In this document: in pieces, positions 6,929-62,800 of the stretch | Layout of the letters: each line of letters opens with the position of its first letter | Numbering within the stretch: position 1 is the first letter of the stretch | Origin: an uncultured Nitrospiraceae bacterium | GTDB lineage: Bacteria > Nitrospirota > Nitrospiria > Nitrospirales > Nitrospiraceae | DNA length: 64,000 bases | Reading direction: 5' to 3' | Assembly (NCBI GenBank): GCA_963706325.1 | Contig: CAVPLT010000001.1 | Span: forward strand, 544,001 to 608,000 | The notes under the pieces: model-generated | Database searches by the model: none | What the model saw: the letters and a program-made list of their open reading frames with translations, nothing else | What the model was told of the DNA's origin: nothing | Made by a program: the position numbers and the translations under genes

Positions 6929-9160
6929 ATGCGCCTGTCCCTCCGCTTCATTCTTCCTCTGGTGCTGGTGTTGGGTGTGGTGGCCTACAGTGTGGTGCCG
7001 CTGGTCGATGCGCTCACGCTCAAGTGGTTCACGCGCGACCTCGAAAGCCGGTCAAAATTATTGGCGAGCACCATGGAAGTGCCGCTGTCCGACCTCGTGG
7101 CGACCAAGTCGCGCGCAAAGATTTTCGCGTATTTTCACAAAGTGATTCAGGATGAGCGGCTGTATGCGCTGGGTTTTTGCGATACCCAGCAGCGCCTCCT
7201 CTACCAGACCCTGACCTATCCCGACCAGTTATCCTGCGAAAGTTTGGCTCACCTGATTCCCGGATCGTCCGAGGTCGTGGACTTTGCGCAAGGGCCGCTG
7301 CATGTCGTGGTGGCGACCATTCAGTCGGGCGGGAAGATCCAAGGTCGCCTCATGTTGGTTCACGACATGAGTTTTGTCCATCAACGCAGCACCGACACCA
7401 AGTGGTACATTTTTTACCTCTTCGTCGGGCTGGCCGCGCTGATTTCAGCGGTGACGGTCCTCATTGCCCAGCTCAGCTGGCGTGGGTGGGTGGCCGGCGT
7501 GCGGACCATGTTGACGAATACAGGTTTCCCGGCTGAACGCGGGCAAGCCCATGCCCCGGAGCTGCATCCCCTCGCGCAGGATCTTCATGCGTTGGTGCGG
7601 GAATTGGAAGCCGATCGCAGGATGCGGGATGAAAGCCAAATTACCTGGAGTCCCGCCAGCCTCAAGACCATTTTGCACGAGCATCTCTCTGGGGATGAAA
7701 TTATGATCGTCTCCAATCGGCAACCTTACATTCACAACCGCCGGGGCCAGAAAATCGAAGTGCAGTTACCGGCCAGCGGACTCGTGTCCGCACTCGAACC
7801 GGTGATGCGTGCCTGTTCGGGCGTGTGGATCGCCCACGGCAACGGCTCGGCCGACCGAGAGGTCGTGGATAACCGTGACCATGTACGCGTGCCGCCGGAC
7901 CACCCTTCCTATGATATCCGCCGCATCTGGATGTCGCCGGATGAGGAGTCGGGCTTCTACTATGGCTTTTCCAATGAAGGTCTGTGGCCCCTCTGTCACA
8001 ACGCCCACGTTCGCCCGACCTTTCGTACTTCCGACTGGGAGCAGTACGTCGCGGTGAACAAACGGTTTGCTCAGGCGGTGGTCGAAGAAGCCAAAACGGA
8101 TGATCCAGTCGTCCTCGTCCAAGACTATCACTTCGCGCTCTTACCTAAGATGGTGCGTGAGAAGCTGCCGAACGCCACCATCATCATGTTTTGGCATATT
8201 CCATGGCCCAATGCGGAAAGTTACGGGATCTGTCCATGGCGGCAGGAAATTCTGGAAGGATTGCTCGGCAGCAGCATCGTGGGGTTCCACACCCGCGAGC
8301 ATGGCAACCATTTTCTGTACTGCATCGATCGTATCCTTGAGGCGCGCATCAACCGTGATGCCTCCACTGTCTCCTATGGTGGCCGGCTCACGGCGGTCAA
8401 TCCCTATCCCATCTCCATAGAATGGCCGTCGCGTTGGCTGGAACATCAACGACCGGTACCCGAATGTCGGACGCATATCCGCGAGCGCCATGCGATGGGG
8501 CCGGATCGGTTAGTAGGGATCGGAGTAGATCGGCTGGATTACACGAAGGGCATCATCGAGCGGTTTCTCGCGGTGGAACGATTGTTCGAATTGCAGCCTG
8601 AATGGGTGGGAAGATTTTCTTTCATTCAGATCGCCGCGCCGAGCCGGACGATCCTCGATCAGTACCAGCATTTTCACGATCAGGTCTATGCGCTGGCCGA
8701 GCGCATCAACAAGCGGTTTGGCCGTGAAGGCTACGAACCGATTGTCCTCAAAGTGAAGCACCATGAGCCGCCGGATGTTTTTGAGTATTATCGGGCGTCC
8801 GATGTCTGCTTCGTCACGAGTCTCCACGACGGCATGAACTTGGTGGCCAAGGAATTCATCGCGGCGCGCGATGACGAGCAAGGGGTCTTGATTCTCAGTC
8901 AGTTCACCGGGGCCGCGCAGGAATTGCCCGAGGCCCTGGTGGTCAATCCGTACGACATGGACCAGTGCGCGGCGGCGCTCCATATGGCGCTTTCAATGCC
9001 GCCGAAAGAACAACGAGCCCGCATGCGGAGCATGCGCGGACTGATTCAGGAGTTCAACGTCTATCGCTGGGCGGGACGCATGCTCATGGATGCGGCACGG
9101 ATGCGCCGTCGCGTTCGCGTCATGAAACAGGTTGGGCAGGCTTCGGGACAGGTCCGGTAA
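6929..9160 (+). CDS. otsA: trehalose-6-phosphate synthase (GT20) with N-terminal TM-periplasmic-TM extension
   Basis: [27 protein letters not shown] and DGMNLVAKE motifs; about 250 extra N-terminal residues with two hydrophobic helices. Confidence 0.93.
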
Positions 9161-9168
9161 TCGTCTTC

Positions 9169-9942
9169 ATGCGCGATGTGCTCACGGCTCCAGGCAAGCG
9201 AGTGCTCGATCGGATTGCGGAACAGGGCGCGGCGTTGTTTGCGTTCGATTTCGATGGGACGCTGGCCCGCATCGTTCAAGATCGGGATGCGGCCGTCCTC
9301 ACGCAGCCCATTCGAGACGCCCTCCATGCTCTAGCCCTGAAGGCGGGCACCGCGATCATTTCCGGTCGCGCGCTCGTCGATCTACAACCGCGCGTCGAGG
9401 GTATTCCCACCCACCTGATCGGAAATCACGGACTGGAAGGGTTACACACATCCGAGCGGGTCATGCATCAGGCGCGGGACTGTTGCCGTGCCTGGCTCAA
9501 GACGGTGCTGAAGGAGCAGCAGATTCTCACAAAAACCGGAGTCGTCGTGGAGGACAAGACCTATTCGCTGACATTCCACTATCGCCAGGCCTCTTCCTCA
9601 CAGGACGCGCGGGAAGCCATCTTTCATGCGGCGGCGTTACTCAGTCCCGCGCCGCGGCTGGTCATGGGGAAATCGGTGGTGAATACGATTCCGCCCGGCA
9701 GCCTGCACAAGGGATCGGCGATGCTGGAGTTGATGCACCAGCTGCAGAGCCCAGCGGCCCTGTACGTCGGAGACGACGATACCGACGAAGATGTCTTTTC
9801 ATTGCCTGACGAACGCATTGTCTCGGTGCGCATCGGGAAAAAGGCCACATCCGCCGCCCGGTTTTACCTGGAGCGGCAGTCGCAGATCGGCTTGTTGCTG
9901 CAATATCTCGCCGAGGCTCGCGGCCGGGTGTCTGTGCCCTAA
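9169..9942 (+). CDS. otsB: trehalose-6-phosphate phosphatase (HAD)
   Basis: FDFDGTL, ISGR, GNHGLE and GDDDTDED motifs; ATG 9169 lies just after the otsA stop. Confidence 0.92.
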   Translation: MRDVLTAPGKRVLDRIAEQGAALFAFDFDGTLARIVQDRDAAVLTQPIRDALHALALKAGTAIISGRALVDLQPRVEGIPTHLIGNHGLEGLHTSERVMHQARDCCRAWLKTVLKEQQILTKTGVVVEDKTYSLTFHYRQASSSQDAREAIFHAAALLSPAPRLVMGKSVVNTIPPGSLHKGSAMLELMHQLQSPAALYVGDDDTDEDVFSLPDERIVSVRIGKKATSAARFYLERQSQIGLLLQYLAEARGRVSVP

Positions 9943-10143
9943 TCACCCTGTGCTGCCATTTGTTTTTACAACGCTGGCGACAATCTGTGTGCATCCCTAG
10001 CCACTGCTCGCGCCGCGACAGAGCTACCTCTAGTTGAAATTTGTTAGAAGCTACGCCATGCGCAACTGCATCCCCGGTGGTTGGTGGAGTGGCTCCGACG
10101 AGGATGTATGGCGGGGGAAATATCCGATGCATTCTGACAGTCT

Positions 10144-10980
10144 GTGGTGGAGGAACTGAAGATGATGGACTATCGTATCAAGCCCGGCTGCCGTTTCGCG
10201 TTGAAAGACTTCGATCCTGATGAGACGGGGCACTATAAGAAAAACGACGTGGGGAAAGCTCAAGCCAAATCTGCTGCTGACGGACTGATCGCGAAACTCG
10301 ATCAGCTGCAGGAACGGCTCTACGCGAATGGGAGCAGGGCTCTGTTGATCGTCCTCCAGGGAATGGATACCAGCGGAAAAGACGGCACGATCAAGAGCGT
10401 GATGTCCGGCGTCAATCCGCAAGGGTGTCGCGTCGCGTCGTTCAAGGCTCCCAGCGAGAGAGAACTCGGTTACGATTTTCTGTGGCGCGTCCACCGTGAG
10501 GTTCCCCCCAAGGGCTACATCGGCATTTTTAACCGGTCGCATTACGAAGACGTGTTAATCACGCATGTGCATGGATGGGTGTCGGACAAAGTGATCACGC
10601 AACGGCTCGATCAAATCAAGGAGTTTGAAGAGATGCTGGCCGAGAACGGCACCACGATCTTCAAGTTGTTCCTGCACATTTCCAAAGACGAACAGAAAGA
10701 GCGGCTGACTGAACGGATTCGCGATCCTGAGAAGCGTTGGAAGTTCGACGAAGGGGATCTCGAGGAGCGTAAATTGTGGGATAGCTATATGAAGTCGTTT
10801 GAACGCGTGCTCTCGGCAACCAGTACCTCTCATGCGCCTTGGTATGTAGTTCCCGCGAATCGGAAATGGTACCGCAATCTCGTCGTGGCTGAGCTGGTTG
10901 TTCAAGTACTTATGGCGATGAATCTGTCTACTCCTCCGGCTCCCAAGGGCGTGGATTTCAGCAAGTTGAAGATTGTGTAG
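10144..10980 (+). CDS. ppk2: polyphosphate kinase 2 family protein
   Basis: QGMDTSGKDG Walker A, FKAPS, FNRSHYEDV and APWYVVPANRKW motifs. Confidence 0.93.
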   Translation: MVEELKMMDYRIKPGCRFALKDFDPDETGHYKKNDVGKAQAKSAADGLIAKLDQLQERLYANGSRALLIVLQGMDTSGKDGTIKSVMSGVNPQGCRVASFKAPSERELGYDFLWRVHREVPPKGYIGIFNRSHYEDVLITHVHGWVSDKVITQRLDQIKEFEEMLAENGTTIFKLFLHISKDEQKERLTERIRDPEKRWKFDEGDLEERKLWDSYMKSFERVLSATSTSHAPWYVVPANRKWYRNLVVAELVVQVLMAMNLSTPPAPKGVDFSKLKIV

Positions 10981-42203: not shown

Positions 42204-43385
42204 TCAACCTTTCACACACAAGATCTGTTTCAATTCAGCCACGACTTCAACCAAGTCGGCCTGGTTCGCCATCACCTGATCTATATCTTTGTACGCTCCG
42301 GGAATTTCATCCAGTACGCCAACGTCTTTCCGACACTCCACGCCAGCCGTCTGCCTCTGTAAATCCTGTACAGAGAACGTGCGTTTGGCTTGTCCACGGG
42401 ACATCCGGCGGCCCGCCCCGTGGGAGCAGGAGTGGTAGGATTCTGGGTTACCGCGTCCGCGGACAATGTACGATCGGGCGCCCATGGACCCTGGAATGAT
42501 CCCCATATCGTCTTGTCTCGCCCGCACCGCGCCCTTGCGGGTGACGATCACCTGATGGCCGAAGTGATGCTCGCGCTCGGCATAGTTATGATGGCAGTTC
42601 ACTTCCATAAGGGGCACGATCGGTCTTCTCGTTTTCTGCACGATATTCTCCACCGCACGTAGGACGCGGCGCATCATCAGGTCGCGGTTCATGAACGCGT
42701 AGGTTTGAGCCCATTGCAGGTCGTCCCAGTAGGCATCAAACTGGGCGCTGCCCTCTTCCAAATAGGCGAGGTCGGGATCTGTCAGCCTGACCCGGTGCTG
42801 CTGCATAATCTTTTTCGCCTGATACATGTGCACTTCCGCAATCTCTTTCCCAATATTGCGCGAGCCCGAGTGCAACATCACCCAGACCTGTTGGATCTGA
42901 TCCAGGCAGAGCTCGATGAAATGATTGCCTCCACCGAGCGTCCCCAATTGCCTCTGTGCCTTATCGAAACGATTGCGCAGCTGGGGCGGCCGCCGGGTGA
43001 ACTCGTTCCATCCTTGCCACGCGCTTGACTCTGGACTAGGCGTCTTGTGTTCATTGAAGCCGACGGGAATGGACCGTTCAATCTCAGCCCGTAGGCTTTT
43101 CAGGGAGGCAGGAAGATCGGACGCCATGAGCGGCAGTTGCACGGCCATCATGCCGCAGCCAATGTCGACGCCGACAGCGCCGGGAATGACGGCGCCCTTG
43201 CAGGCAACTACGGATCCGACCGTGGCCCCATAGCCTAGATGGACGTCCGGCATGGCAGCGATGTGTCGAAACACGCAGGGCAGATTCGCCGTGTTGACTA
43301 ATTGCTGTAGGGCAGACGCTTCGACCTCTGCGAGGGGAGCCCACAGTTTGATTGGGACCCGTGCGCTGTTCACAACGGCTTTCAT
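42204..43385 (-). CDS. rtcB: RtcB RNA ligase
   Basis: MPDVH, VGVDIGCG, GGGNHFIE, HSGSR, HHNY, PGSMG, SHGAGR and terminal KG motifs; SD GGAG before ATG 43385. Confidence 0.96.
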   Translation of the reverse strand: MKAVVNSARVPIKLWAPLAEVEASALQQLVNTANLPCVFRHIAAMPDVHLGYGATVGSVVACKGAVIPGAVGVDIGCGMMAVQLPLMASDLPASLKSLRAEIERSIPVGFNEHKTPSPESSAWQGWNEFTRRPPQLRNRFDKAQRQLGTLGGGNHFIELCLDQIQQVWVMLHSGSRNIGKEIAEVHMYQAKKIMQQHRVRLTDPDLAYLEEGSAQFDAYWDDLQWAQTYAFMNRDLMMRRVLRAVENIVQKTRRPIVPLMEVNCHHNYAEREHHFGHQVIVTRKGAVRARQDDMGIIPGSMGARSYIVRGRGNPESYHSCSHGAGRRMSRGQAKRTFSVQDLQRQTAGVECRKDVGVLDEIPGAYKDIDQVMANQADLVEVVAELKQILCVKG

Positions 43386-43605
43386 ACCCACTCCATTCTA
43401 AAAATTGGTAAGAGGCTCTGCGTTATTGTACCGTCTATGGCCTTCGTGTGCCTCGCCATCCCGCGGCTAATATCGATACGTGCGTCCGCTTAGCGAGTTC
43501 TAATGCCCAGCTAATGAGGCTCTCATCCCCCACCCGTAACCTAATAGACCGGTCGACGTATGGTCCACAGAGGCGGTGCACAATCATATGTACAGAGAGG
43601 GTCGG

Positions 43606-50373: not shown

Positions 50374-50790
50374 GTGAGCGCACTCTCGCAGATTCAAATC
50401 TATACGGACGGGAGTTGTCTCGGGAATCCCGGTCCAGGGGGCTGGGCCTACATCATCGTTCAGGAGGGCAAGGAACGAAGGGAGGGCTCGGGTCACTGTA
50501 CGGCCACGACCAACAATCGCATGGAAATGATCGCCGCCATCGAAGCGCTGAAGAGCCTTGCGCCTGCTCAATCCGTCGTACTCCATTCGGACTCTCAGCT
50601 ACTGATCAAGACCATGACGCTGGGATGGAAACGTAACAAGAACCAAGATTTGTGGGCTGAGCTGGATCAGCTTGCGGCGGTGCATCGTATTACCTGGCAG
50701 TGGGTGCGCGGTCATAACGGGCATCCGGAGAACGAAGCGTGCGACAACCTTGCGCAACGAGCCGCTTCCATCGCCAGTTCTTCGCGTTGA
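50374..50790 (+). CDS. rnhA: ribonuclease HI
   Basis: YTDGSCLGNPGPGG, TTNNRME, SDS, N.DLW and WVRGHNG..ENE.CD motifs. Confidence 0.95.
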   Translation: MSALSQIQIYTDGSCLGNPGPGGWAYIIVQEGKERREGSGHCTATTNNRMEMIAAIEALKSLAPAQSVVLHSDSQLLIKTMTLGWKRNKNQDLWAELDQLAAVHRITWQWVRGHNGHPENEACDNLAQRAASIASSSR

Positions 50791-51198: not shown

Positions 51199-52116
51199 TC
51201 AGCCTTGAACCGTCGATCGCCTCGCGAGTTGCTCTAACTCCTCATCCAGCGCAGCAAAATCTTCCAGTATATCGATATGTGATTTCAGGAAATGCTCACG
51301 CATCGCGAGGGCGCCATGCCCTCCGACGGTGAGGTGAGAGGCGGGACTCACCTCCTGAGCCAGAGCCTGAATTATCTCGGTGGCTCTGGTTTCTGTGAAG
51401 GCCAATGGAAAAGACACGATGGTCAGATTCGGCTCCACCTCGTGGCAGAGCTTGGTCAGGTCCGCCACGGGCACATTCGCTCCTAGGTAGTACACACGAC
51501 AGCCTCGCACGCGGCAACGATAGGCGACGGCCAACGCGGCGATGTCGTGCTCCTCTCCGGGCGGGCAGGCCACCACCACTTTGACGCCAAATTCAGCCAC
51601 TGGCAGCTGATTCATCGCGGAAAAAATTTTCTGTTGGATGTGCTTGGTGACGTAATGTTCGAGGGCCACATTCACGTGGCCGTCGTGCCAGAGTTGCCCG
51701 ACCTGCGCTTGGAGCGGGAGTAAGATCCCGTGGAGCGCTTCTTCAAAGGGCACCACCGCAACCGCCCCGTTTAATCTTTTTTCAAACATGACGCGGTCAA
51801 AGGGCTCCAGCGCCGACAACAGTTCCCTCAAAAGGCGATCGAAGGTATTGTCGATAAAGGAAGTGCGTGGCGAAGCCGCTCGCATCCGGTTCAGAAGTTC
51901 CTCTCGGCCCAATCGCGCGAGGTCTCCGATGGAACCACCAGCATCTAATTGCTCTTTCAGGTAGCGCAGCAGCGCCACATCTTCATCTGAATAGTTGCGA
52001 TAGCGATTAGCTCCTCGCGTTGGTCTTAGGACCCCAAATCGGCGTTCCCATACCCGAATCACATCCTTCGACAGTCCGGTGAGTTTCGCAACTCTATGAA
52101 TTCTATGAATATTCAT
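51199..52116 (-). CDS. CarH/LitR-like MerR regulator with cobalamin-binding domain
   Basis: MerR HTH (VAKLTG..IRVWERRF..P.R...YR.YS); W-x9-EH (WHDGHVNVALEH); GEEHDIA; YLGANVP. Confidence 0.9.
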   Translation of the reverse strand: MNIHRIHRVAKLTGLSKDVIRVWERRFGVLRPTRGANRYRNYSDEDVALLRYLKEQLDAGGSIGDLARLGREELLNRMRAASPRTSFIDNTFDRLLRELLSALEPFDRVMFEKRLNGAVAVVPFEEALHGILLPLQAQVGQLWHDGHVNVALEHYVTKHIQQKIFSAMNQLPVAEFGVKVVVACPPGEEHDIAALAVAYRCRVRGCRVYYLGANVPVADLTKLCHEVEPNLTIVSFPLAFTETRATEIIQALAQEVSPASHLTVGGHGALAMREHFLKSHIDILEDFAALDEELEQLARRSTVQG

Positions 52117-52127
52117 GGCGGATTGAA

Positions 52128-52233
52128 ATTATATCTACATGTCTAATGTTTGTCAAATATGTATTGATATAACTATTGACACATTGGACAAATAGGGCTA
52201 TACATTAGACATACTTGTTACAAACATTGAACA
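52128..52233. promoter_or_regulatory. divergent promoters with CarH-type operator repeats
   Basis: Minus strand TTGACA (52156-52151)-N17-TATAAT (52133-52128); plus strand TTGACA at 52176; TAGACA/GTTACA/TGAACA at 52206/52217/52228 with 11-bp period. Confidence 0.8.
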
Positions 52234-52240
52234 TAAACCC

Positions 52241-52546
52241 ATGGAGTTGATCATGGCGACATCAAATGGATTGAAAGACAAACCAAGACACAATGACCCG
52301 AATTATTTCTCAACTTTTTCGACGGAGCACAGCTGTGGGCGGTGCGGCGGACTCTTAGTGCAGGACTTCTGCACGGATCTGCTCAATAGCACCGGTGAGC
52401 TTGATTGCTCGACTGCGCGTTGCGTGCAGTGTGGTGATGTCGTCGATCCGGTCATTCACCGGAATCGGCATCTCCAGCAAACCGCTGGCACGGTTCGGGA
52501 CACGAAGGCGTCGGTGTCATCGGCTCACAGTCGGTTCTCGATCTAA
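52241..52546 (+). CDS. zinc-ribbon family copy 3
   Basis: CGRCGG...DLL..TG...RCVQCGDVVDPVI.RNR; the start may be 52253 (GGAG SD). Confidence 0.8.
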   Translation: MELIMATSNGLKDKPRHNDPNYFSTFSTEHSCGRCGGLLVQDFCTDLLNSTGELDCSTARCVQCGDVVDPVIHRNRHLQQTAGTVRDTKASVSSAHSRFSI

Positions 52547-52596
52547 TGGCTCAACCCGCCGGGGTTGTCGAGGGTTCTTAACCAAGGAGGTTTCTC

Positions 52597-53559
52597 ATGC
52601 GGAGTCTAGCGGTTCTTCAGGTGGGATGGGGAATAGTGTTCATGGCGGGGTCAATGTCCCTGGCTGTGGCGGCGGATACCGCCGGCGACAATAAGGACAT
52701 GGTGCTCATTCCGAAAGGTGAGTTCTCCATGGGTAGCAACGAACACTCAGATGAGGTCAAGCACCAAGTCGTGCTCGATACGTACCTGATCGATAAGTTT
52801 GAAGCCTCCAATACGCGATACAAAGAATTCATGACGGCCACCGGCCATCCCGCACCGGCCTACTGGGACGATCCACGCCTGAGCAAGCCTAATCAGCCTG
52901 TGGTCGGGGTGAGCTGGACGGATGCGAATGCTTTCTGCAAGTGGGACGGCAAACGGCTGCCGACCGAGGCGGAATGGGAGAAGGCAGCCAAGGGTCCGGA
53001 CGGCGATAACCATTATCCCTGGGGTCACCACCTCGATCCGAAGAAGGCCAACTATGGGCAAAACGTTGGTCACACCACGCCGGTCGACTCGTATCCTGAG
53101 GGCGTGAGTGGATATGGCCTCTACAACATGGCGGGAAATGTCTTTGAATGGGTCGAAGACTGGTATGACCCGAAGTTTTACAAAAACAGCAACGCCCTGA
53201 ACCCTCGCGGGGCCGAGAAGGGCTACAACTTTGCTAATCAAGGCCCGGTGAGAGTGTTGCGTGGTGGCTCGTGGTTGGCTCCCGAGACCTCACTGCATAC
53301 CAGCCATCGGTTCTGGAATCAGCCGGAGAATAACTCCTACGGCGTCGGCTTGGGATTCCGTTGCGCAAAATCGGCCCAGACGGTCTCGGACGAATCCGTG
53401 CAGGTGGGACGCGATGCATTTATTCAGGCCTTAGTGGCCATGGGGGCCGAGAAGAATGCTGATGCGATGGCCTCCATCGAGAAGGCGCTGGCGGCCGATC
53501 CGAACAACAAGGAATACGTGGCGACCCGCGAGCTCATCAAGAAGAGCACGAAGAAGTAA
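52597..53559 (+). CDS. secreted FGE-sulfatase-fold (SUMF1/EgtB/PvdO-like) protein 1 with TPR-like tail
   Basis: [33 protein letters not shown] and GFRC motifs; signal peptide; SD AAGGAGG. Confidence 0.9.
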   Translation: MRSLAVLQVGWGIVFMAGSMSLAVAADTAGDNKDMVLIPKGEFSMGSNEHSDEVKHQVVLDTYLIDKFEASNTRYKEFMTATGHPAPAYWDDPRLSKPNQPVVGVSWTDANAFCKWDGKRLPTEAEWEKAAKGPDGDNHYPWGHHLDPKKANYGQNVGHTTPVDSYPEGVSGYGLYNMAGNVFEWVEDWYDPKFYKNSNALNPRGAEKGYNFANQGPVRVLRGGSWLAPETSLHTSHRFWNQPENNSYGVGLGFRCAKSAQTVSDESVQVGRDAFIQALVAMGAEKNADAMASIEKALAADPNNKEYVATRELIKKSTKK

Positions 53560-53626
53560 CTCGCAGGCGAGGAGGGGGGCGGTACACCCGCCTCCCTGCC
53601 GGAGCCCTCAGGGGAGGAAGTCAGAA

Positions 53627-54685
53627 ATGAATATACTCGAAGGTTTAATCGGTGCGGGGCTGATGGTGGGAATTACCATGCTCACCGGGACCGCTCATGG
53701 GGAAGACAAGCTGCCGCCATCGGACATGGTCTATGTCGGGCATGGTCCATCAGTCATGGGACTGGACAAAGCGCAAACGGCTGATTCGGGCCGATGGCTC
53801 ACGGCCTACGACAAACGAATGAAGAAACCCTGGTCCGCCGAGGCGTTCCACGACGAAGGGCCGGCCCACATGGTGTTCTTGGACGCGTTCCTCATCGACA
53901 AGTACGAAGTGGCGAATAAGGATTACGGCGACTTCATTAGGGCGACCGGCCATCCGGCCCCGGCCTATTGGGATGATCCCCGTTTGAACAAGCCGCAGCA
54001 GCCGGTCGTCGGAGTCAACTGGTACGATGCCAAAGCGTATTGCGAATCTCGCGGGAAGCGGCTGCCGACGGAAGCCGAATGGGAGAAAGCGGCTCGTGGT
54101 CCACACGGCAACCTCTATCCCTGGGGCAACGATTTCGATTCGGCAAAAGCCAACTACAACCGGCATCAGGATGCGACCTGGCCCGTGGACTCGCACCCGG
54201 ACGGGGCCAGCTACTATGGCCTGTATAACATGGCGGGCAATGTCTTCGAGTGGGTCGCGGATTGGTATGATCCGCAGTATTACGGGAGGCTGCAGACCAT
54301 GGTGAATCCAACCGGTCCCGACAAGGCAGTGTGGATGGGGGGCACCGGCACCTATGTAGACCGCTTGACGGTAGGCGAGAAGCGGGTCATCCGTGGCGGT
54401 TCTTGGATCGCGCCGGAAGGCACGATCCGCTCGACCCACCGGTTCTGGAATCATCCTCTCAACAACAGTTACGGTGTAGGACTTGGCTTTCGTTGCGCTC
54501 AAGCAGCGCCGCCTGAGCTGGAACAACGTGTCAGGGACAGTTACATCACTGCCTTGGTGGAAATGGGACGCCAGCGATTTGTTGAAGCCCAACAAGCCGT
54601 CAACCGTGGGCTGACCCTGGACCCCAAGAATATTGAATTGTTGGAGCTTCGACCTCTCACTGAACAATCGATGAAGCGGCCGTGA
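53627..54685 (+). CDS. secreted FGE-sulfatase-fold protein 2 with TPR-like tail
   Basis: Same motifs; signal peptide ending AHG-E; GGAGG SD before ATG 53627. Confidence 0.9.
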   Translation: MNILEGLIGAGLMVGITMLTGTAHGEDKLPPSDMVYVGHGPSVMGLDKAQTADSGRWLTAYDKRMKKPWSAEAFHDEGPAHMVFLDAFLIDKYEVANKDYGDFIRATGHPAPAYWDDPRLNKPQQPVVGVNWYDAKAYCESRGKRLPTEAEWEKAARGPHGNLYPWGNDFDSAKANYNRHQDATWPVDSHPDGASYYGLYNMAGNVFEWVADWYDPQYYGRLQTMVNPTGPDKAVWMGGTGTYVDRLTVGEKRVIRGGSWIAPEGTIRSTHRFWNHPLNNSYGVGLGFRCAQAAPPELEQRVRDSYITALVEMGRQRFVEAQQAVNRGLTLDPKNIELLELRPLTEQSMKRP

Positions 54686-54741
54686 AGAGTCAGGGCGGCT
54701 GGTGGTGGCGGCCCAATGTTCCACATGACGGAGGCAGAGGC

Positions 54742-55110
54742 ATGACGCACTCAAGAACAATGGCCCTGATAGGTGGTCTGACGATGTGGCTTACTCCAGT
54801 GATCCTCCAGGCCGGTCCGATCGAGGCCAGCCGCCACCCGCATCCGAAGAATATTGAGATGGTGCATCGGGCGGAACATAGCGTGGACCATGCCTGGGAG
54901 GTGTACCATCGTGCGGCGTTGGGAGGCACGGTGGCGTCCCCGGATCTGCAAGCCCGAATCGAACAACACCTGCATGAAGCCAGAACGCTTGTGCCCCAGG
55001 CGCAAGAGGCCGTCGAACGAGGAGACAGTCCCAAAGTGGAGCGTCTTGTAGGCAAAATTAAGCATCATACGGCCCAGGCAATCCAAGGGAGCAAGGAGCA
55101 GAAGAAATGA
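54742..55110 (+). CDS. secreted His-rich helical protein (SmbP-like metal binder, inferred)
   Basis: Signal peptide LQA-G; 10 His in the mature part. Start uncertain (54682, 54742 or 54760). Confidence 0.7.
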   Translation: MTHSRTMALIGGLTMWLTPVILQAGPIEASRHPHPKNIEMVHRAEHSVDHAWEVYHRAALGGTVASPDLQARIEQHLHEARTLVPQAQEAVERGDSPKVERLVGKIKHHTAQAIQGSKEQKK

Positions 55111-55970
55111 CACCAGGTCTGAGCAGGACAAGAGTCAAATGGAGACGGCTCGGTCTACTCATGACGGCAGCCTGTGCCGTCTCAGTATCATCGGTTCTCG
55201 CATCGCCGGCCTTCAAGGAACCTGATCCGGTTCCCATGGCGACCATTCCCGCCGGACCGTTCCTAATGGGCAGTCAGAATCCGAAGGGGCGAGCCGATGA
55301 GTGGCCCCAGCGAACCGTCGACATCGATGCGTTCGCCATCGATCGCGTGGAAGTGACCAACGAACGTTACATGACGTTTGTTGCAACGACAGGCCACCGA
55401 AGCCCGCCGAACCCCTATGGCACCGGCCTGTTAGTGTCTGCAAAAGGCATCGAACAGCTGCCTGTCGTGCAGGTCACCTGGTACGACGCAAAAGCCTATT
55501 GCGCCTGGGCCAAGAAGCGCCTGCCCACGGAAGCGGAGTGGGAAAAAGCCGCACGCGGCACAGATGGGCGTCATTTTCCGTGGGGCGAGGATCAGCCGTC
55601 CCAGACCAGGTCGAATTTCGACCGGGAATGGGACGGTGAGAAGACTTTTCATGCGGTCGGCTCCTTGCCTGGCGGCAACTCACCCTACGGCATCCAGGAT
55701 ATGTCGGGCAATGCGCGGGAATGGGTGCAGGATTGGTACGATCCCGACTATTACTCGAATGCACCGGAGAAAAACCCGCAGGGACCCGAGAAGGGCGTAG
55801 TACGTGTGATCCGTGGAGGGTCCTGGCACAGCCCCATATCGGACATCACGGCCACTGCGCGCGGACGAGGGGGGTTTGCCTTACAGACGCACGGGACAGG
55901 CTTCCGGTGCGTTCGAGGTGGAGAAGGTCAGGTCCAGAGTAAGTCCAACTCGCTGGGAGCACTGAAGTGA
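55107..55970 (+). CDS. secreted FGE-sulfatase-fold protein 3
   Basis: [40 protein letters not shown] and GFRC motifs; ATGA overlap. Confidence 0.9.
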
Positions 55971-56159
55971 CCGGAATGGACGGATGTCGGATGAACGGAA
56001 GCGGTTGGTTGTTCCCTGGTGGAGGCGTCGCTACTCCGCACGGCGCTTCCCATGAGGAGGATGGGTCCTTCCCTTGGGAGGGACTCGTCCCCTCGGTGAG
56101 CCACAGGACCACCAGCAGCGAGCGGGGAGATTCTTCAGAACACTGACGAGGAGACTTCC

Positions 56160-56288
56160 ATGATCTACATGTTGGTCTATAGCATCCCAGCCATCACGCT
56201 GAGTATCGGGGTGACTGTCATGTCGCGGCGGCAACCAGCCTGCGCGGTCGTTCGGCAGGCCGGACTCGGAAGACCTCGTGTCCGGTAG
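56160..56288 (+). CDS. 42-aa single-TM peptide
   Basis: GAGGAG SD; MIYMLVYSIPAITLSIGVTVM followed by an Arg-rich tail. Confidence 0.5.
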   Translation: MIYMLVYSIPAITLSIGVTVMSRRQPACAVVRQAGLGRPRVR

Positions 56289-56379
56289 CGCATGTGTGCG
56301 TGTCGGATTGTGTCACATTCGAGCTCGGTGATCATTCCAGGTGTGGAGTCGTTGACAGTTCTCGCACTCGGAGGTTCCA

Positions 56380-56742
56380 ATGGAAACACGTGGGACACCG
56401 GACACGTCTTCTTCTGCAGCTCCGCATGCCGGCCACGCCACCTGCGCCCGCTGCGGTGGGTTGTTGCTTGGGCAGCACTATATGGATTTGCTCGATGATA
56501 CCGGCCAGATCGACATTACGGCCTGGCATTGCACGATGTGCGGCGAGGTCGTCGACGCGGTCATTCTGAAGAACCGCCAGAGCCCGCCGCCGAATTTGCT
56601 CTACGGAACCAAAGCGCGCAAGTTCAGCCAGCGGGTGACGGACATTGTGGACAGCAGTGGCTCGGATGATTCCTCCAATGAGACGGAGGCATCGCAAGCG
56701 AAAGACAAATCGTCCGAAGAGTCTGATGAAGAGGGTGCGTAG
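56380..56742 (+). CDS. zinc-ribbon family copy 4 with acidic tail
   Basis: GGAGGT SD; CARCGG...DLLDDTG...WHCTMCGEVVDAVILKNR. Confidence 0.8.
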   Translation: METRGTPDTSSSAAPHAGHATCARCGGLLLGQHYMDLLDDTGQIDITAWHCTMCGEVVDAVILKNRQSPPPNLLYGTKARKFSQRVTDIVDSSGSDDSSNETEASQAKDKSSEESDEEGA

Positions 56743-56778
56743 TTAGCGGACAGCTGCTGTAAACGGGAGGATGGGCCG

Positions 56779-57690
56779 ATGAAAATCGTCGTGACCGGCG
56801 GAACGGGGTTTATCGGTCGTCCTCTTGTCGACGAGTTAGCTCGCCTGGGGCATGAAGTGGTTGTCTTGTCGAGGACGGCCGACCGCGATCCTCGGCCGTC
56901 CGTCAGGTTTGTGAGAATGGGATGCGCGTTCGGTGGGACCCTGGCAAGCCGAGCTTCTGTCGACGGATGCCGTCGTGAATTTAGCCGGCGAACCGATCGC
57001 TGAAGGACGATGGACGGAGGCCCGAAAGCGAGTTCTGGTCGCGAGCCGCATTGTTGCCACGAGGCTTGTGGTGACGGCGTTGGCTGCACGGTCTCGCGCT
57101 CTTCCTGTGTCTGATCAGCGCGTCCGGCATCGGCTTTTACGGTGCCAGCGACGATCGTCTCCTGGATGAACATTCTCCACTTGGTCAGGGGTTTCTGGCC
57201 GACCTGTCGTCGGTCTGGGAGGGAGAGGCGCTACGCGCCGGTGAGTCTGGGGCGCGTGTCGTGTTGCTGAGACCAGGCATGGTGCTCGAACAGGATGGTG
57301 GGGCATTGCCCAAGATGTTGTTGCCGTTTCGCTTCTTCGCTGGGGGGCCGATCATGCCTGGCACGCAGTGGGTTTCCTGGATCCACCGGAGTGGATCTTA
57401 TCGGCTTGATCAACTGGGCCATCACGACGCCGACGGTCTCGGGTCCTGTGAATGCGGTGGCTCCAGAGTCGCTCACGATGAAGACGTTCTGTGCGACTGT
57501 CGGGAAGGTCCTCCATCGTCCGTCGTGGTTTCCTGTTCCTGGTCTGGCGTTACGACTGGCGCTGGGTGAGTTGGGAACATTGATGACGACCGGTCAACGG
57601 GTCAATCCGGCCAAGGCGCTTGCGGGCGAGTACGTCTTTCGTTATCCGACGCTGGAGCCGGCCTTACGGGCGATCGTAGCAAAGGGATAA
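56779..57690 (+). pseudogene. TIGR01777-like NAD-dependent epimerase with three +1 frameshifts (possibly sequencing errors)
   Basis: VTGGTGFIG, VVNLAGEPI, ISASGIGFYG, WIHR, GPVNAVAP and FRYP motifs lie in successive frames; extra bases near 56914, 57110 and 57390. Confidence 0.85.
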
Positions 57691-57706
57691 GCGAGGAGGC
57701 CTGGGC

Positions 57707-58190
57707 ATGAGCCTAACCATTGAGCCGGTGATGCAGTATCTGCACGCGGTCGCCGTCGCCATTCTGCTGGGGAAGGTTGTGTTGTTGTCGTTCGTGGTGG
57801 CGCCGATCCTTGCGAAGAATTTGGAACGGGAGGCATTTGGGAAAGTCGTTCGGGAACTATTCCCCGCCTATTATAGGTTAGGCATGGCTACGGCTGCTGT
57901 GGGGCTGGTATCCGTGACCGGTCTCTTGACCCTCCAAGGTCTCAACCCATCCCTGCTGGCCGCAGGGGGGCATTTGGCTGGTGATCCTGGCCGCTGAGTC
58001 TTACTGCCGGTCGCCGCTGACCCCACAGAGCAATGCAATGAGAGATCGATTGAAGGAGCAGGAACAGCGTGGCGCCGTCGATGCTCGGCTGCAGGTAGCC
58101 TGGAGTCGATTGCATCAACGATCGATTTACCTCAATTCGATCGTGCTGCTTGGGGGACTCAGTTTATTGGGAGTTGCACGTCAATTTTAA
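57707..58190 (+). pseudogene. DUF4149/TMEM205-like membrane protein, frameshifted at a G run (~57966)
   Basis: SFVVAP..FGKV...LFP.YY, then RLHQRS..LN in the next frame. Confidence 0.75.
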
Positions 58191-58212
58191 TTTCTACGAA
58201 GGGAGACCGAGC

Positions 58213-58701
58213 ATGCATAAATCCATCGACACCAGGGCATATGTAGCGTTGGGACTTTTGGGCGTCATTCTCCTTCAGCTCGCCTCCGCGGATGGCTGAG
58301 GTCGAGGGCGGCTGACGAACAAACCACTCCTGGATCGCGGGCACGGCCGGCACCTGGCTCAGAAATCACGATGCCCGATGGCGTCATCGGGGTGTCGCTG
58401 CATGTCGGGGCTGAACGGGTGGGCGATACCGCGGTGCTGTATATCGCGCATGTTTTGCCTGAGGGTCCGGCGCAGCAGGCGGGACTCAAGCAAGGTGATG
58501 AGGTGACCACCGTGGATGGCGCTGCTCGTCACCGGAAAAACCTACGAGCAAGTGGCCCTAATGGTACGAGGCGCGCCGGGATCGATGGTGAAGTTGGGAG
58601 TGAAGGGTGAGGGTGGCTTGCGCGAGATCTCTGTCACACGTGTGGCGGGACAATCCCTTTACAAGGGTCAGATGGGATCCCATGGCAGCTCTTCTCGATA
58701 G
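58213..58701 (+). pseudogene. secreted PDZ-domain protein with two frameshifts
   Basis: Signal-like N-terminus; GVIGV, GPAQQAGLKQGDEV..VDG, then VRGAPGS.V.L in the next frame; breaks near 58290 and 58521. Confidence 0.75.
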
Positions 58702-58708
58702 GTGAGCC

Positions 58709-59234
58709 ATGAGAACGATCATTGGGGTGCTTGGATTGTTCGGAATCTTGGCCGTGAGTTCGACCCTTGGAGGCTCACGGCCAAGTGACCACGGCGTCAC
58801 AGCTGTCTCACGGCGAGAAGACGAACATATATCTGATGGCCGGCGACTATCGCCGGGCGTTGGAGGTGTGCGAGCAAGCGATTCAGGAGATGCCGTCGGC
58901 CGAAGCCTACCTCCGTCTCACCTATGTCTATCAGGCGATCGATGCGTACCTTGAGCAGCTGTCTCAGGACGAGAGTTGGATGGCCGTCGAACAATTGTAT
59001 TTGAACCTCGCTTACCGGCATACGGAAGATCTCGTCGATCCGCCCGGCGGGCTGGCGCGCATGGCAAAAGAGATGATTCAAACGAGTGTCCGGCAGCAGT
59101 CCGACGTCAGCGCAGCGATGGCCGTGCGGCTGGATAAGGCGGAGGCTGATCGTCTCTGGCAGGAACAGACGCAGTGGCGGAAAGCACATCCCACCACGTG
59201 GTGGCGGGCATTTCCAGGGGTCTGGGGTCGATGA
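58709..59234 (+). pseudogene. secreted helical/TPR-like protein, frameshift near 58767
   Basis: Signal peptide in the 58709 frame; body AGDYRRALEVC... in the 58767 frame. Confidence 0.65.
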
Positions 59235-59281
59235 AGAGGAGGCCTCCTCCCAACATAAGTCCTCGGGAGGAGATCCAAATA

Positions 59282-59713
59282 ATGAACCAGGACACAGCTG
59301 ACCGCGGACGTGATGTCAAACTGTTCGGAGCCTTATTCATCCTGGTGGGATTGGTCGATATGCTCATTATCGAATTCTTCCCAAACTATGCGCTCAAGCT
59401 GTTCGGCCTCACGATTACCGGGCCTTTGGCCTATCCTGTCAAACTACATTCCCCGGCGGTTCACTTTTTGATCGGGTATGGATTTGTATTTCTGCGCCCC
59501 TGGGCCTGGGGGTTGGCGATGGCCTATGGAGGATTCGGGCTCACGAGTGAATTCATGAATCAGCTGCAGTTTGGTTTTCATTATCTGCGAACGGGCTTTA
59601 TGGCTGCGACATTCCTGTTTCTCTGTTACGCGGCGTGGCGGCGGACTCTGTTTGTCGATACTGTGCCTCCGGCTCACCGGCGGGCTTCTTCCACACCAGA
59701 GGTGCCCTCGTGA
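59282..59713 (+). CDS. 4-TM membrane protein
   Basis: GGAGGA SD; hydrophobic helices; IGYG...LRPWAW. Confidence 0.75.
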   Translation: MNQDTADRGRDVKLFGALFILVGLVDMLIIEFFPNYALKLFGLTITGPLAYPVKLHSPAVHFLIGYGFVFLRPWAWGLAMAYGGFGLTSEFMNQLQFGFHYLRTGFMAATFLFLCYAAWRRTLFVDTVPPAHRRASSTPEVPS

Positions 59714-61158
59714 AAGGGTTGGTGTGGTTTCGTCGTGATCTTCGTGTTCGTGATAACCCCGCCCTATCGGCGGCGTGCAAGGACTGTCGGGAGATCGTGC
59801 CCTTGTTTGTCTTTGACGAACCGTTGCTGCAATCGCATGTGTTTGGATCCGCTAGCGTCGGCTTCATGCTGGGTTGCCTGGAGGAGTTGCGAAGCTCGTT
59901 GGCAAGTCTCGGCCTCACACTCGCGTGGCGGATCGGCCAGCCAATCGACGCCGTGATGCAGGCTGCGGCAGATTTTGGAGTGGATGCGGTCTACTGGAAT
60001 CGTGATTATGAACCGGCAGCCCTGGAGCGGGATCGCACGATCGAGCTCCGTCTCACACAACAGAGCCGGGCGGTGAAGACCTTCAAGGACCACGTCGTGT
60101 TCGAGGCCGATGAAGTGCGTGGAGTCACCGGCGAACCCTTCCAACGCTACAGCGCCTACCGTGATCGGTGGTGGGTCAAGTGGCGGGCTGCCACACCGCT
60201 CGAACTCGACGTCCCGACATTCGAGGCGACGAAGTCAGGTGCCTCTGCTCCAGAGGTATCGCCGTGGCCTTCGGCGGAGGATCTGGGATACCAGACGGTC
60301 TCGATGTGGATCGAACCAGGTGAGCTGGCGGCGCGCGCCAGACTCCGATGGTTCCTGCGAGGACCAATCCATGCCTATGTCAGTGGCAGGAATCTCCCGG
60401 CGATCGACGGCACGTCCAAGCTGTCTCCGCACTTGCGCTTCGGAACTATTTCTGCGCGCACCGTGATTCACGCGGCGCTGAACACCCTGTCGAAAGACGG
60501 TCCGGTGTCGCGCGCCGATGTCTTCACGTGGATGGATGAGCTTGTCTGGCGGGAATTTTTTCAGCAAGTCCTGATGGCGTTTCCTCGCGTGTCCGAAGGG
60601 CCTTTCAAAATCAAACCCGGGCTTCCCTCAGCGAGAGGCGCGGGGCCTGAACGCGATCGATTATTTGCCGCCTGGTGTCAGGGACGGACGGGCTATCCGA
60701 TCGTGGACGCCGGTATGCGCCAATTGAATCAGACCGGTTGGATGCACAACCGCGTTCGGATGGTCGTCGCCTCGTTCCTGGTCAAGGACCTCCGCATCGA
60801 GTGGCAAAGCGGTGAGCGCTATTTCATGCGGCAGCTTGTCGACGGCGATCTGGCGGCCAACAACGGCAACTGGCAATGGTGCGCCTCGACCGGAACGGAT
60901 GCGATGCAGGGCTATCGGATTTTTAATCCCATGTTGCAAAGCGAGAAATTCGATGGCGAGGGTAATTACATTCGACGATACGTGCCGGAGCTCACCGGCG
61001 TGCCGGTGAAATGGATTCATGCGCCACACCTCATGCCACAGGGTGAACAAGACCGTGTCGGATGCCGCATCGGCATGGAATATCCGGCGCCCATTGTTGA
61101 TCATCGCCAAGCTCGTCAGGAATACTTAGACTTCGGAAAACGTCAGGTGGCGACATGA
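59710..61158 (+). CDS. phrB: deoxyribodipyrimidine photolyase (class I CPD-like)
   Basis: WFRRDLRV.DNPAL, TSKLSPHLRFG, TGYPIVDAGMRQL..TGWMHNRVRM and NNGNWQW motifs; GTGA overlap. Confidence 0.93.
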   Translation: MKGLVWFRRDLRVRDNPALSAACKDCREIVPLFVFDEPLLQSHVFGSASVGFMLGCLEELRSSLASLGLTLAWRIGQPIDAVMQAAADFGVDAVYWNRDYEPAALERDRTIELRLTQQSRAVKTFKDHVVFEADEVRGVTGEPFQRYSAYRDRWWVKWRAATPLELDVPTFEATKSGASAPEVSPWPSAEDLGYQTVSMWIEPGELAARARLRWFLRGPIHAYVSGRNLPAIDGTSKLSPHLRFGTISARTVIHAALNTLSKDGPVSRADVFTWMDELVWREFFQQVLMAFPRVSEGPFKIKPGLPSARGAGPERDRLFAAWCQGRTGYPIVDAGMRQLNQTGWMHNRVRMVVASFLVKDLRIEWQSGERYFMRQLVDGDLAANNGNWQWCASTGTDAMQGYRIFNPMLQSEKFDGEGNYIRRYVPELTGVPVKWIHAPHLMPQGEQDRVGCRIGMEYPAPIVDHRQARQEYLDFGKRQVAT

Positions 61159-62108
61159 TGTCCACACCGCTCCGTCTCGGTATCAGCCGCTGTCTTCTCG
61201 GCGCAGAAGTTCGGTTCGATGGAGGCCACAAACGGGACGGGTTTCTGACCGACCTGTTGGGCCGCTACGTCGAATGGGTGCCGGTCTGTCCGGAGGTCGA
61301 GGCAGGGCTCGGCACTCCTCGCGAAGCGATGCGACTGGTCGGCGATCCGCAACAGCCTCGACTGGTTGCGATCAAGAGCGGGAAGGACCATACCCAAGCC
61401 TTGGCGACCACGACGGCGACTCGACTTCCTGAGCTCGAAAGACTGGACCTTTCGGGGTTTGTCTTTAAAAAGGACTCGCCGAGTTGTGGGATGGAACGGG
61501 TGCGTACATACAATGAGCATGGCATGCCGGGCAGGAAGGGAATCGGGCTATTTGCGCAGGCCTATGTCGAGCGGTTTCCGCTGATTCCAGTTGAGGAGGA
61601 AGGGAGGCTATGCGATCCCCTCTTGCGAGAAAATTTTATTGAGCGGGTGTTTTGCTACCGCCGTTGGCAGGACCTGGTTCAACGTGGGATTTCCAGGCAG
61701 GCACTCGTACAGTTCCATACCACTCACAAATATCTGCTCCTCGCTCATAGCGCCCAGCATTATCGCCTGCTCGGGCGCTTGGTGGCGCAGGTGAACGCCT
61801 ATCGCCCCAAGGATCTGACTCTTCGATATGGCGAGCTCTTCATGCAGGCGCTGTCCGTGAAGGCGACGGTGCGTAAACATGTGAATGTGCTTCAGCACAT
61901 CCTGGGGTACTTCAAACCGCGACTCGATGCGCAAGGAAAAGCCGAACTATTGAGTGTGATCGGGGATTATCACCAGGGGCTGACGCCTTTGATCGTTCCT
62001 CTGACCTTGATCAAGCACTACGTGCAGATCTTTGACGTCGACTACATTCGCGAGCAGGTCTATCTGAACCCGCATCCGAAGGAGCTCATGCTCCGGAACC
62101 ATGTGTAG
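61155..62108 (+). CDS. DUF523 + DUF1722 (YbgA-like) protein
   Basis: GISRCLLG..VRFDGGH, CPEVE.GLG.PR, SPSCG, EEEGRL, FH..HKY and QVYLNPHP motifs. Confidence 0.92.
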   Translation: MMSTPLRLGISRCLLGAEVRFDGGHKRDGFLTDLLGRYVEWVPVCPEVEAGLGTPREAMRLVGDPQQPRLVAIKSGKDHTQALATTTATRLPELERLDLSGFVFKKDSPSCGMERVRTYNEHGMPGRKGIGLFAQAYVERFPLIPVEEEGRLCDPLLRENFIERVFCYRRWQDLVQRGISRQALVQFHTTHKYLLLAHSAQHYRLLGRLVAQVNAYRPKDLTLRYGELFMQALSVKATVRKHVNVLQHILGYFKPRLDAQGKAELLSVIGDYHQGLTPLIVPLTLIKHYVQIFDVDYIREQVYLNPHPKELMLRNHV

Positions 62109-62290: not shown

Positions 62291-62800
62291 ATGGCAGCTG
62301 AGCGACGAGGTGTCATTCTGGTTGGTCACGGGGGCATTCCCAAGGGTTGCCCTCAAGATGTCGTCACGAAATTGAAACGCCTGGAGGCTCAGCGGCGCGC
62401 CGCCAAGCAACCGCCGTCAGCCGAAGAGATCGAGTTGGATACAAAGATTCGCCAATGGCCGAGGACGCCGGAAACCGATCCCTATCAATCAGGGCTTGAA
62501 GCCGTGGCCGCCCAATTGAAAGCGAACCTGGGAGATGTGCTGTTTGCGGTGGCCTACAATGAGTTTTGCGCCCCGACCTTGGAAGAGTCGGTGGAGCAGC
62601 TTGTTCAAAACGGCGCGACCCACATTACTGTGACCACGACCATGTTTACGCCGGGCGGTTCGCATTCAGAAGTCGAGATACCGGAAATTCTTGATCACCT
62701 TCGGCCACAGTATCCAGGTGTGGAACTCCGCTATGCCTGGCCGTTTGATCTGAACCGGGTCGCGAATACGCTGGCTGAGCAGATCAAGCGATTTGCCTGA
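62291..62800 (+). CDS. short CbiX/SirB-family chelatase
   Basis: VILVGHG, AYNEFCAPTL and GGSHSEVEIP motifs. Confidence 0.8.
   Translation: MAAERRGVILVGHGGIPKGCPQDVVTKLKRLEAQRRAAKQPPSAEEIELDTKIRQWPRTPETDPYQSGLEAVAAQLKANLGDVLFAVAYNEFCAPTLEESVEQLVQNGATHITVTTTMFTPGGSHSEVEIPEILDHLRPQYPGVELRYAWPFDLNRVANTLAEQIKRFA

Follow-up and report, generated by a model that had tools for sequence, protein, structure and literature searches.

The closest described counterparts of the locus reported here are the class I CarH/LitR regulons of Thermus thermophilus (CarH; PDB 5c8d and 3whp), Myxococcus xanthus (CarH), and Bacillus megaterium (LitR), together with the class II LitR regulons of Pseudomonas (PplR/PmlR; phrB, RudS, and ufa genes). 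CarH proteins have been assigned by their MerR recognition helix (RxWERRY) and the motifs W-x9-EH and D/ExHx2G/P...SxT/V...GG (PMC9304148). Class II LitR proteins retain only the four-helix bundle and act with LOV proteins, and carotenoid-free LitR regulons occur in Pseudomonas (PMC9758184). RudS belongs to a tRNA 4-thiouridine desulfidase family that removes photosensitizing 4-thiouridine, and its gene often shares light-responsive operons with those of photolyase and LitR (PMC11417400). In this study, we examined a 64,000-nucleotide stretch of the genome of an uncultured Nitrospiraceae bacterium (GenBank assembly GCA_963706325.1, contig CAVPLT010000001.1, positions 544,001 to 608,000; here called the window), in which a first inspection had proposed a B12-photoreceptor-controlled operon built on secreted proteins of the formylglycine-generating enzyme (FGE) fold. 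We describe this locus as a class I CarH-like regulon that differs from the known ones in cargo, repeat spacing, and basal expression.

The gene content, order, and strands of the operon were as first described, with the open reading frame (ORF) listing, the sequence, and family scans in agreement (Table 1), and the start/stop overlaps were recovered as well (ATGA at 55107 and 61155, GTGA at 59710). Divergently from carH runs a front half encoding a small zinc-ribbon protein (Zn1), the FGE-fold proteins FGE1 and FGE2, a histidine-rich (His) protein, and FGE3, followed by a back half encoding, among others, a YfcH-like oxidoreductase, a PDZ protein, a photolyase, and RudS. Beyond this run we found a short CbiX-type gene, which probably belongs to the unit.

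The product of carH contains MerR_1 (PF13411), B12-binding_2, and B12-binding domains, the layout of the class I regulators, and its closest PDB matches are the T. thermophilus CarH entries (E = 2e-27). The presence of a CarH-type regulator with MerR and cobalamin domains and a W-x9-EH motif was confirmed (W143-x9-E153-H154). The MerR helix-turn-helix harbors RVWERRF, and the cobalamin-binding part carries W143-H144..E153-H154, E188-x-H190, S235, and G265-G266. In an alignment of 79 regulators (the window's and those of 78 locus ORFs covered to 90% or more), RVWERR, W143, E153, H154, E188, H190 (the cobalt-ligand His), S235, G265, and G266 were invariant and H144 followed W143 in 77; the last position of the recognition helix, after RVWERR, is F in the window and in 36 of the 79 and Y in 43. 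The W-x9-EH motif, the lower His ligand, the DNA-recognition helix, and the divergent gene layout are shared with class I systems, and unlike the class II LitR proteins the regulator has both B12 domains. It missed the cutoff of the NCBIfam CarH equivalog NF052513 (129.3 bits versus 400). Additional regulators were observed in relatives: an extra copy of carH, equipped with a separate repeat cluster (L031:3937-5844, L191, L192, L219, and L220), precedes genes for a NapC/NirT cytochrome, a cytochrome c-FGE fusion, SmbP, and sometimes katG, and a more distant MerR-B12 protein (~30% identity) is encoded directly after RudS inside the operon of L197, L199, L200, L208, and L209.

A repeat search of the 124-bp gap between carH and Zn1 returned the 10-mer ACATTRRACA, from which a scoring matrix was built with relatives only, the window being excluded. 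The 4.2-Mb genome contains 19 exact copies, four of them in the gap, which is the only cluster of at least three; a second strong cluster, as a wider regulon might have, was not found in the genome. One copy (52140-52149) lies within the spacer of the carH promoter, which matches the sigma70 consensus at 12 of 12 positions. The other three (at 52181, 52202, and 52224, with spacings of 21 and 22 bp) overlap the predicted operon promoter, which is less canonical and absent from the promoter-scan listing and is conserved in the upstream sequences of relatives. At least three copies with at most one mismatch were present in 66 of the 77 relatives with 200 bp of upstream sequence, at spacings of 21 bp (49 cases) and 22 bp (52 cases). 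Compared with the 11-bp tandem operator of CarH (nnnnTnnACAn), the four conserved copies fit the consensus (nnnnTnnACA in each) and overlap both promoters, as in class I systems; unlike there, they stand 21 to 22 bp apart with degenerate middles, a spacing that resembles the DR1/DR3 contact described for CarH. We treat the cluster as a candidate operator of the CarH-type regulator.

The association of the repeats with carH extends across relatives. In loci totaling 2.36 Mb, 126 repeat clusters adjoin carH and 11 lie elsewhere, most of the latter preceding a displaced Zn1, FGE1, or katG gene. Among 107 FGE1 starts, 88 have both a divergent carH and a cluster, nine have neither, seven have carH only, and three a cluster only; with related loci, and with some genomes retrieved in duplicate, these co-loss counts are not independent trials. 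Loss of the divergent carH is accompanied by loss of the cluster. We consider it quite probable that the CarH-type regulator controls the operon promoter.

Conserved linkage was likewise borne out by synteny. Where the upstream sequence reached 9.9 kb or more (42 carH loci), FGE1, His, and FGE3 were present in 41, YfcH in 36, PDZ in 32, photolyase and RudS in 31 each, FGE2, which is dispensable, in 29, DUF4149 and TM4 in 20 each, and TPR in 19, the 10-kb flank lowering the counts of distal genes. FGE-fold and Zn-ribbon families are expanded in the genome (~15 and ~8 loci by tblastn), so their presence alone is unremarkable and their conserved position is what is unusual. A survey of 301 genomes of the phylum recovered the His family from 60 and carH from 54, all belonging to a single class. 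Across 57 genomes of the family, carH and the His gene are both present in 38, both absent in 16, and discordant in three; in one of the three (L215), a contig end carries the operator. A core of FGE1-His-FGE3-YfcH-RudS-CbiX is retained without photolyase in several of 20 hand-picked regions (e.g., L193-L198, L208, and L209). L205 and L210 run on into chalcone-isomerase-like genes, in L205 also desaturase, SDR, and amine-oxidase genes; these lipid-modifying genes recall the Pseudomonas LitR clusters, which resemble the present system also as carotenoid-free light regulons with photolyase and RudS. The FGE/His front module finds no mention in the accessible part of PMC9758184, and we found no description of the locus in the open-access literature on Nitrospira CarH, FGE-fold proteins, or light transcriptomes.

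Nitrospira had been suggested as the host, and the taxonomy of the regulator's relatives agrees. Among the 80 best of 129 confirmed carH relatives in GTDB genomes, titles name Nitrospira, Nitrospiraceae, Nitrospirales, or Nitrospirota, the exceptions being a Pyrinomonadaceae title on one 3-kb contig and two entries labeled "uncultured bacterium." No amoC match was found in the genome (96% complete), and the host is therefore likely a canonical nitrite oxidizer. The absence of a carotenoid target, noted before for the window, holds genome-wide: nothing exceeded the crtI cutoff (TIGR02734), and both PF00494 (squalene/phytoene synthase) matches, on other contigs, are probably hopanoid genes. The front cargo differs from that of class I regulons and consists of exported (predicted), Cys-less FGE-fold proteins and a His-rich helical bundle.

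All three FGE-fold proteins match PF03781 (E = 1e-47 or better each), and the FGE1 model matched the fold in Foldseek (E = 6e-16). They resemble aerobic FGE (SUMF1; PDB 6muj and 1y1e) and its Cys-less relatives (SUMF2, PvdO, ToxD, CalU17, and GldK/PorK) in family and fold. In contrast to SUMF1, the catalytic, copper-binding Cys pair after RGGS is replaced in each, which rules out FGE catalytic activity, and none reached an NCBIfam equivalog cutoff. FGE1 and FGE2 add three C-terminal helices and a loop of their own, HRFWNxPxNNSYGVGLGFRC, nearly invariant across orthologues; FGE3 has a different loop, nearly invariant among its own orthologues. The 13 genome paralogues matching the loop pattern (contigs C1, C4, C5, and C7) also lack the catalytic cysteines, and each has a distinct C-terminal loop, like a binding-protein family with different specificities. 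Signal peptides were judged by eye only; RR occurs within the first 25 residues in 26 of 42 FGE3 orthologues versus 1 of 52 FGE1 orthologues. Median identity is 83% for FGE1 (69 locus hits) versus 65% for photolyase and 56% for carH.

The His protein was modeled as a three-helix bundle (predicted local distance difference test score, 88), and its His residues are conserved in orthologues. It has no Pfam family, and fold searches returned generic helical bundles only. Like SmbP (PF16785; PDB 3u8v), it is helical, His-rich, and predicted to be exported. An identity as SmbP was nevertheless not supported: it has no PF16785 match, the hhalign probability against a true SmbP is 3.9%, the Foldseek E value of 3u8v against the model is only 0.86, and the genome's real SmbP is encoded on another contig. 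The Atlas label of its nearest clusters, "putative SmbP," serves as a lead only. Apparent His-domain fusions in two related loci, L191 and L192 (frames of 669 and 671 amino acids [aa]), were discarded, being SDR+DUF2867 frames that read into a His gene without a signal peptide.

Expression of the likely counterparts has been published for Nitrospira moscoviensis, in which NITMOv2_0130-0146 were matched to the operon on the strength of order, length, and annotation rather than alignment. In a glass chemostat for which the accessible text gives no light regime (PMC6606698), mean transcript levels in reads per kilobase per million mapped reads (rank among 4,391 genes) were 629 (275) for carH, i.e., 6.4 times the median of 97.6, 6,821 (8) for FGE1, 1,647 (65) for His, and 2,312 (42) for FGE3. 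Values then fall to 180 for Zn2, 51 for YfcH, 46 for DUF4149, 84 for PDZ, 71 for TPR, 31 for TM4, 60 for photolyase, 46 for RudS, and 69 for CbiX; no row for FGE2 was found in the accessible table. In cultures described as maintained in the dark and sampled regularly (PMC9381531), protein ranks among 2,244 (first column of intensity-based absolute quantification) were 29 for FGE1, 30 for PDZ, 146 for FGE3, 158 for His, 543 for YfcH, 619 for CbiX, 1,002 for carH, 1,510 for TPR, and 1,517 for RudS, with near-equal values for FGE3 (0.59e9) and His (0.55e9) and likewise for FGE1 and PDZ. The orthologues were thus abundant in dark-maintained cells, though handling light is possible. In Nitrospira marina, a 351-aa FGE protein whose row adjoins those of PDZ, DUF523, and CbiX ranks first among the 13 FGE rows (PMC8115632); no statement on the light regime was found in the accessible part of that paper. 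No light/dark expression data set for the operon was found in the open-access literature, and a look-up of RNA runs listed none for the window's organism.

The 13- to 45-fold transcript drop in N. moscoviensis coincides in position with a two-hairpin RNA element behind FGE3, which suggests a 3' stabilizer or processing site. In 35 aligned sequences, 97.8% of the cells are paired and 8 of 23 pairs show two-sided changes, exceeding all 500 shuffles and all slid controls; the shuffles leave relatedness in, and the 35 were picked from 54 orthologues (L002-L079) after a strong hairpin had been seen, making this a selected set. The element is single copy in the genome and has no Rfam match. An intrinsic terminator was rejected, as there is no U-tract. 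The ACUCCGCAC loop resembles an anti-Shine-Dalgarno sequence, and the element could be a 3' stabilizer or a released small RNA.

Relatives carry further genes in or beside the operon, many of them for metal or redox proteins: amoC, a PmoD homologue (E = 6e-6 to 6cpd), true SmbP, NapC/NirT cytochrome, cytochrome c-FGE fusion, KatG, redoxin, DCC1-like, VKOR, glutathione peroxidase, and SDR+DUF2867. Such cargo favors the earlier idea of a periplasmic metal or cofactor module in the front half. Among the 57 family genomes, 24 have amoC and 19 of these also the His gene; in 11 of the 19, an amoC copy lies at the operon locus, either after FGE3, behind carH, or with a PmoD-like gene after RudS/CbiX. 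The 18 full-length amoC copies form two well-supported clades, and at least two gains are therefore likely. Extra amoC loci of comammox genomes, often accompanied by a PmoD-like gene, include L009:3448-4245, L015:4852-5649, L045, L050, L165, and L213-L221. Downstream of CbiX, EB_dh (DMSO-reductase gamma type) and cytochrome c genes were seen in L208:14955-18861 and L196:14842-15855; these genes are possible candidates for a nitrite oxidoreductase gamma subunit.

We propose that the regulator, loaded with adenosylcobalamin (AdoCbl) and unlit, represses a Nitrospiria-wide operon through the ACATTRRACA repeats over both promoters, probably dimming a strong promoter instead of switching it on and off. 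Since the likely counterparts are abundant even in dark-kept cultures, light would raise the operon rather than switch it on. In this respect, too, the locus departs from class I regulons, and the light-stress regulon originally predicted has to be divided: its back half, with the photolyase and RudS typical of light regulons, together with the CarH motifs and the carH-tied repeat cluster, supports the idea, whereas a front half silent until light does not fit top transcripts and abundant dark-culture proteins. For the front tier (the Zn-ribbon protein, two or three Cys-less FGE-fold proteins, and the His-rich three-helix protein), which is abundant in a cultured relative, the conserved double hairpin behind FGE3 would shield the message; YfcH, PDZ, photolyase, RudS, and CbiX would form the back tier, the usual light-damage kit, with far fewer transcripts. 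We predict that the proteins of the front tier are exported and serve as binding proteins instead of formylglycine-generating enzymes; they probably keep or deliver a metal or tetrapyrrole cofactor for light-damaged periplasmic metalloenzymes of nitrification, with the His protein as a likely metal carrier for FGE3. We give this full explanation, a CarH-tuned two-tier operon including the periplasmic cofactor role, even chances of being right.

Several observations weigh against it. The TnnACA pattern in exact 11-bp phase gives two matches, a number reached by 654 of 5,000 shuffles and not significant. The window's B12 motif deviates from the consensus, with Ala at position 193 (Ala in 33 of the 79 aligned regulators, Gly in 46) and Pro at position 237 (Pro in 34, Thr in 45). 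Eight distant loci retain the module without a divergent carH and without the operator, and several loci do so without photolyase. Given the high rank of FGE1 protein in dark-maintained cells of a strain that transcribes its de novo cobalamin genes at ~3 to 5 times the median (PMC6606698), tight dark repression is not seen. PDZ, rank 30 as a protein and below the median as a transcript in the other study, is a misfit with two clean tiers. SmbP identity of the His protein is unsupported, and no ligand was found for the front proteins. Finally, the amoC placements represent few events among related genomes, and the window's genome has no amoC match.

The CarH motifs, the operator, and the photolyase/RudS pair would also suit a conventional CarH light switch, with the whole operon silent in true darkness and light induced, if the published levels reflect bench light in routine handling, the long life of proteins in slowly growing cells, and an unshaded glass reactor. 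The glass chemostat with its high carH transcript and the regular sampling of the dark cultures leave room for this, as does the continuation of L205 and L210 into chalcone-isomerase-like genes. However, the dark-culture rank of FGE1, the top position of the N. marina FGE protein (light regime unstated), and the survival of the module after loss of carH and photolyase speak against it, and we regard a strict switch as rather unlikely. A different signal is conceivable: were the regulator mainly a sensor of cobalamin status, the operon of these mostly salvage-dependent bacteria would be derepressed when AdoCbl is scarce, and the front proteins and CbiX would capture corrinoids or cobalt. CbiX stays in the operon, N. 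marina requires B12 (PMC8115632), and the media of both N. moscoviensis studies list no vitamins in the accessible text (PMC6606698 and PMC9381531). CbiC had no match in the genome and was found in only 10 of the 77 relatives searched (missing in 67), and the host therefore probably relies on external corrinoids. The genome does encode CobA, PduO, and CobS, and AdoCbl could come from salvage, a cofactor supply that also fits our proposal above. Yet the salvage cluster on contig C8 (G000:C8:24654-39146; L212) has its own two cobalamin riboswitches, whereas an Rfam scan gave none at the operon locus; N. moscoviensis transcribes the de novo pathway, and photolyase and RudS indicate light. A cobalamin-status sensor is in our judgment highly improbable.

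FGE-fold GldK/PorK proteins are ring formers, and the front half could by analogy be a constitutive housekeeping complex or scaffold of the periplasm, with carH mostly regulating itself or activating at a promoter with a 19-bp spacer (TTGACA to TACATT) and the light genes riding along. Very high, stable expression, the better conservation of FGE1 than of photolyase, and the near-equal amounts of FGE1 and PDZ in the proteome are in line with this, as is the persistence of the core without carH, where sigma54 activator or kinase genes lie upstream in three scanned loci (L194, L201, and L208). Against it, the module is absent from 17 of 57 family genomes, 16 of which also lack carH, and of the four repeats, three cover the operon's own promoter and the sequence downstream, as a repressor's sites would; we think this explanation very unlikely. 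The two-tier operon tuned by CarH remains our preferred reading.

Nitrifier photoinhibition has long been known, and nitrite oxidation seemed the more light-sensitive step in Nitrospira inopinata; the authors of that work call the molecular light response of nitrifiers unexplored (PMC9797979). The locus provides a concrete light-response candidate, in which a single regulator and a single operator cluster come with genes that bear locus tags in cultured N. moscoviensis (NITMOv2_0130-0146). One of these genes, FGE1, yields the eighth most abundant transcript and carries no annotation in the accessible table beyond "exported protein of unknown function." Should the front module maintain periplasmic metalloenzymes, a large Cys-less FGE-fold family would gain a role, B12 supply by other microbes would be linked to nitrifier light tolerance, and the system would be relevant to light-based control of nitrite oxidizers in wastewater. 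More speculatively, Nitrospira may have swapped carotenoid photoprotection for an abundant periplasmic cofactor-handling and repair system, in which Cys-less FGE-fold binders, helped by a His-rich carrier of metal and a PDZ partner, would reload or protect the metal centers of cytochromes, nitrite oxidoreductase, and, in comammox strains, ammonia monooxygenase; the B12 photoreceptor would set the dose and the double-hairpin RNA the tiers, and comammox strains would repeatedly have attached spare amoC and PmoD-like genes. We offer this broader scenario tentatively and doubt that it holds as a whole.

Table 1. Features of the carH-FGE locus, in coordinates of the window
Feature	Position	Strand	Basis or remark
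carH, CarH/LitR class I-type regulator, 305 aa	51199..52116	-	Pfam, PDB search, motif columns
carH promoter, sigma70 type, TTGACA-17-TATAAT	52128..52156	-	12/12 consensus match
Predicted operon promoter	52176..52233	+	-35 at 52176-52181; -10 at 52199-52204 or 52201-52206
Zn1, small CxxC..CxxC protein, Nitrospirota-expanded unnamed family	52241..52546	+	ORF, tblastn, alignment
FGE1, 320 aa, signal-peptide-like start, FGE/C-type-lectin fold	52597..53559	+	Pfam, model, alignments
FGE2, 352 aa, FGE1 paralogue (53%), same loop	53627..54685	+	Pfam, alignment
His-rich protein, exported (predicted), 122 aa, 11 His	54742..55110	+	ORF, model; stop overlaps FGE3 start
FGE3, 287 aa, Cys-less FGE fold	55107..55970	+	Pfam, alignments
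Two-hairpin RNA element, near-invariant ACUCCGCAC loop	56024..56096	+	Alignment, covariation
Micro-protein, 42 aa, single transmembrane segment, basic tail	56160..56288	+	Homologues in relatives
Zn2, paralogue of Zn1, CxxC..CxxC	56380..56742	+	ORF, tblastn
TIGR01777/YfcH-like oxidoreductase	56779..57690	+	Three artefactual insertions; intact 308-aa orthologue
DUF4149 membrane protein	57707..58190	+	Pfam; one artefactual insertion
Single-PDZ protein, exported (predicted)	58213..58701	+	Pfam; three artefactual insertions
TPR-like protein, exported (predicted)	58709..59234	+	Weak Pfam TPR hits below cutoff; one artefactual insertion
TM4, hydrophobic membrane protein, 143 aa, no family	59282..59713	+	ORF, Pfam
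DNA photolyase	59710..61158	+	PF00875 and PF03441 over cutoff
RudS (TudS/DUF523 + DUF1722)	61155..62108	+	PF04463 and PF08349; Cys12/44/110
Short CbiX-type chelatase	62291..62800	+	Genome's only PF01903 match; stays with operon despite shuffled gene order

The closest NCBIfam models of the photolyase, TIGR03556 and PRK10674, both scored below cutoff. Class I CPD (cyclobutane pyrimidine dimer) photolyase is reported for most reference Nitrospira in PMC9239080, the accessible part of which does not mention the CarH-type regulator. The three expected Fe-S cysteines of RudS, Cys12, Cys44, and Cys110, have the same numbering as in RudS_ST (PMC11417400, Table 1). The TPR-like protein has one paralogue in the genome (46%; G000:C4:290267-290725).

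Eight one-base insertions, all within 1.9 kb of the window (at ~56913, 57110, 57391, 57965, 58279, 58303, 58525, and 58770) break the TIGR01777, DUF4149, PDZ, and TPR genes. They are assembly errors, because each is missing in at least one near-identical short-read contig (runs X1, X3, or X6; three studies) and relative L002 lacks the seven that fall inside its aligned stretch. Genuine pseudogenes in mid-operon are ruled out by the short-read contigs, and full-length orthologues of the four genes are the rule in relatives. The front half showed no indel in four runs; apparent joints in that comparison were short matches between FGE paralogues and were set aside. Other stretches of the same assembly may contain similar false frameshifts. 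Ordinary neighbors in the window, at 5096-10977, 42207-43391, and 50374-50790, showed no connection to the operon; the neighboring genes encode trehalose synthesis and hydrolysis with PPK2, an RtcB ligase, and RNase HI.

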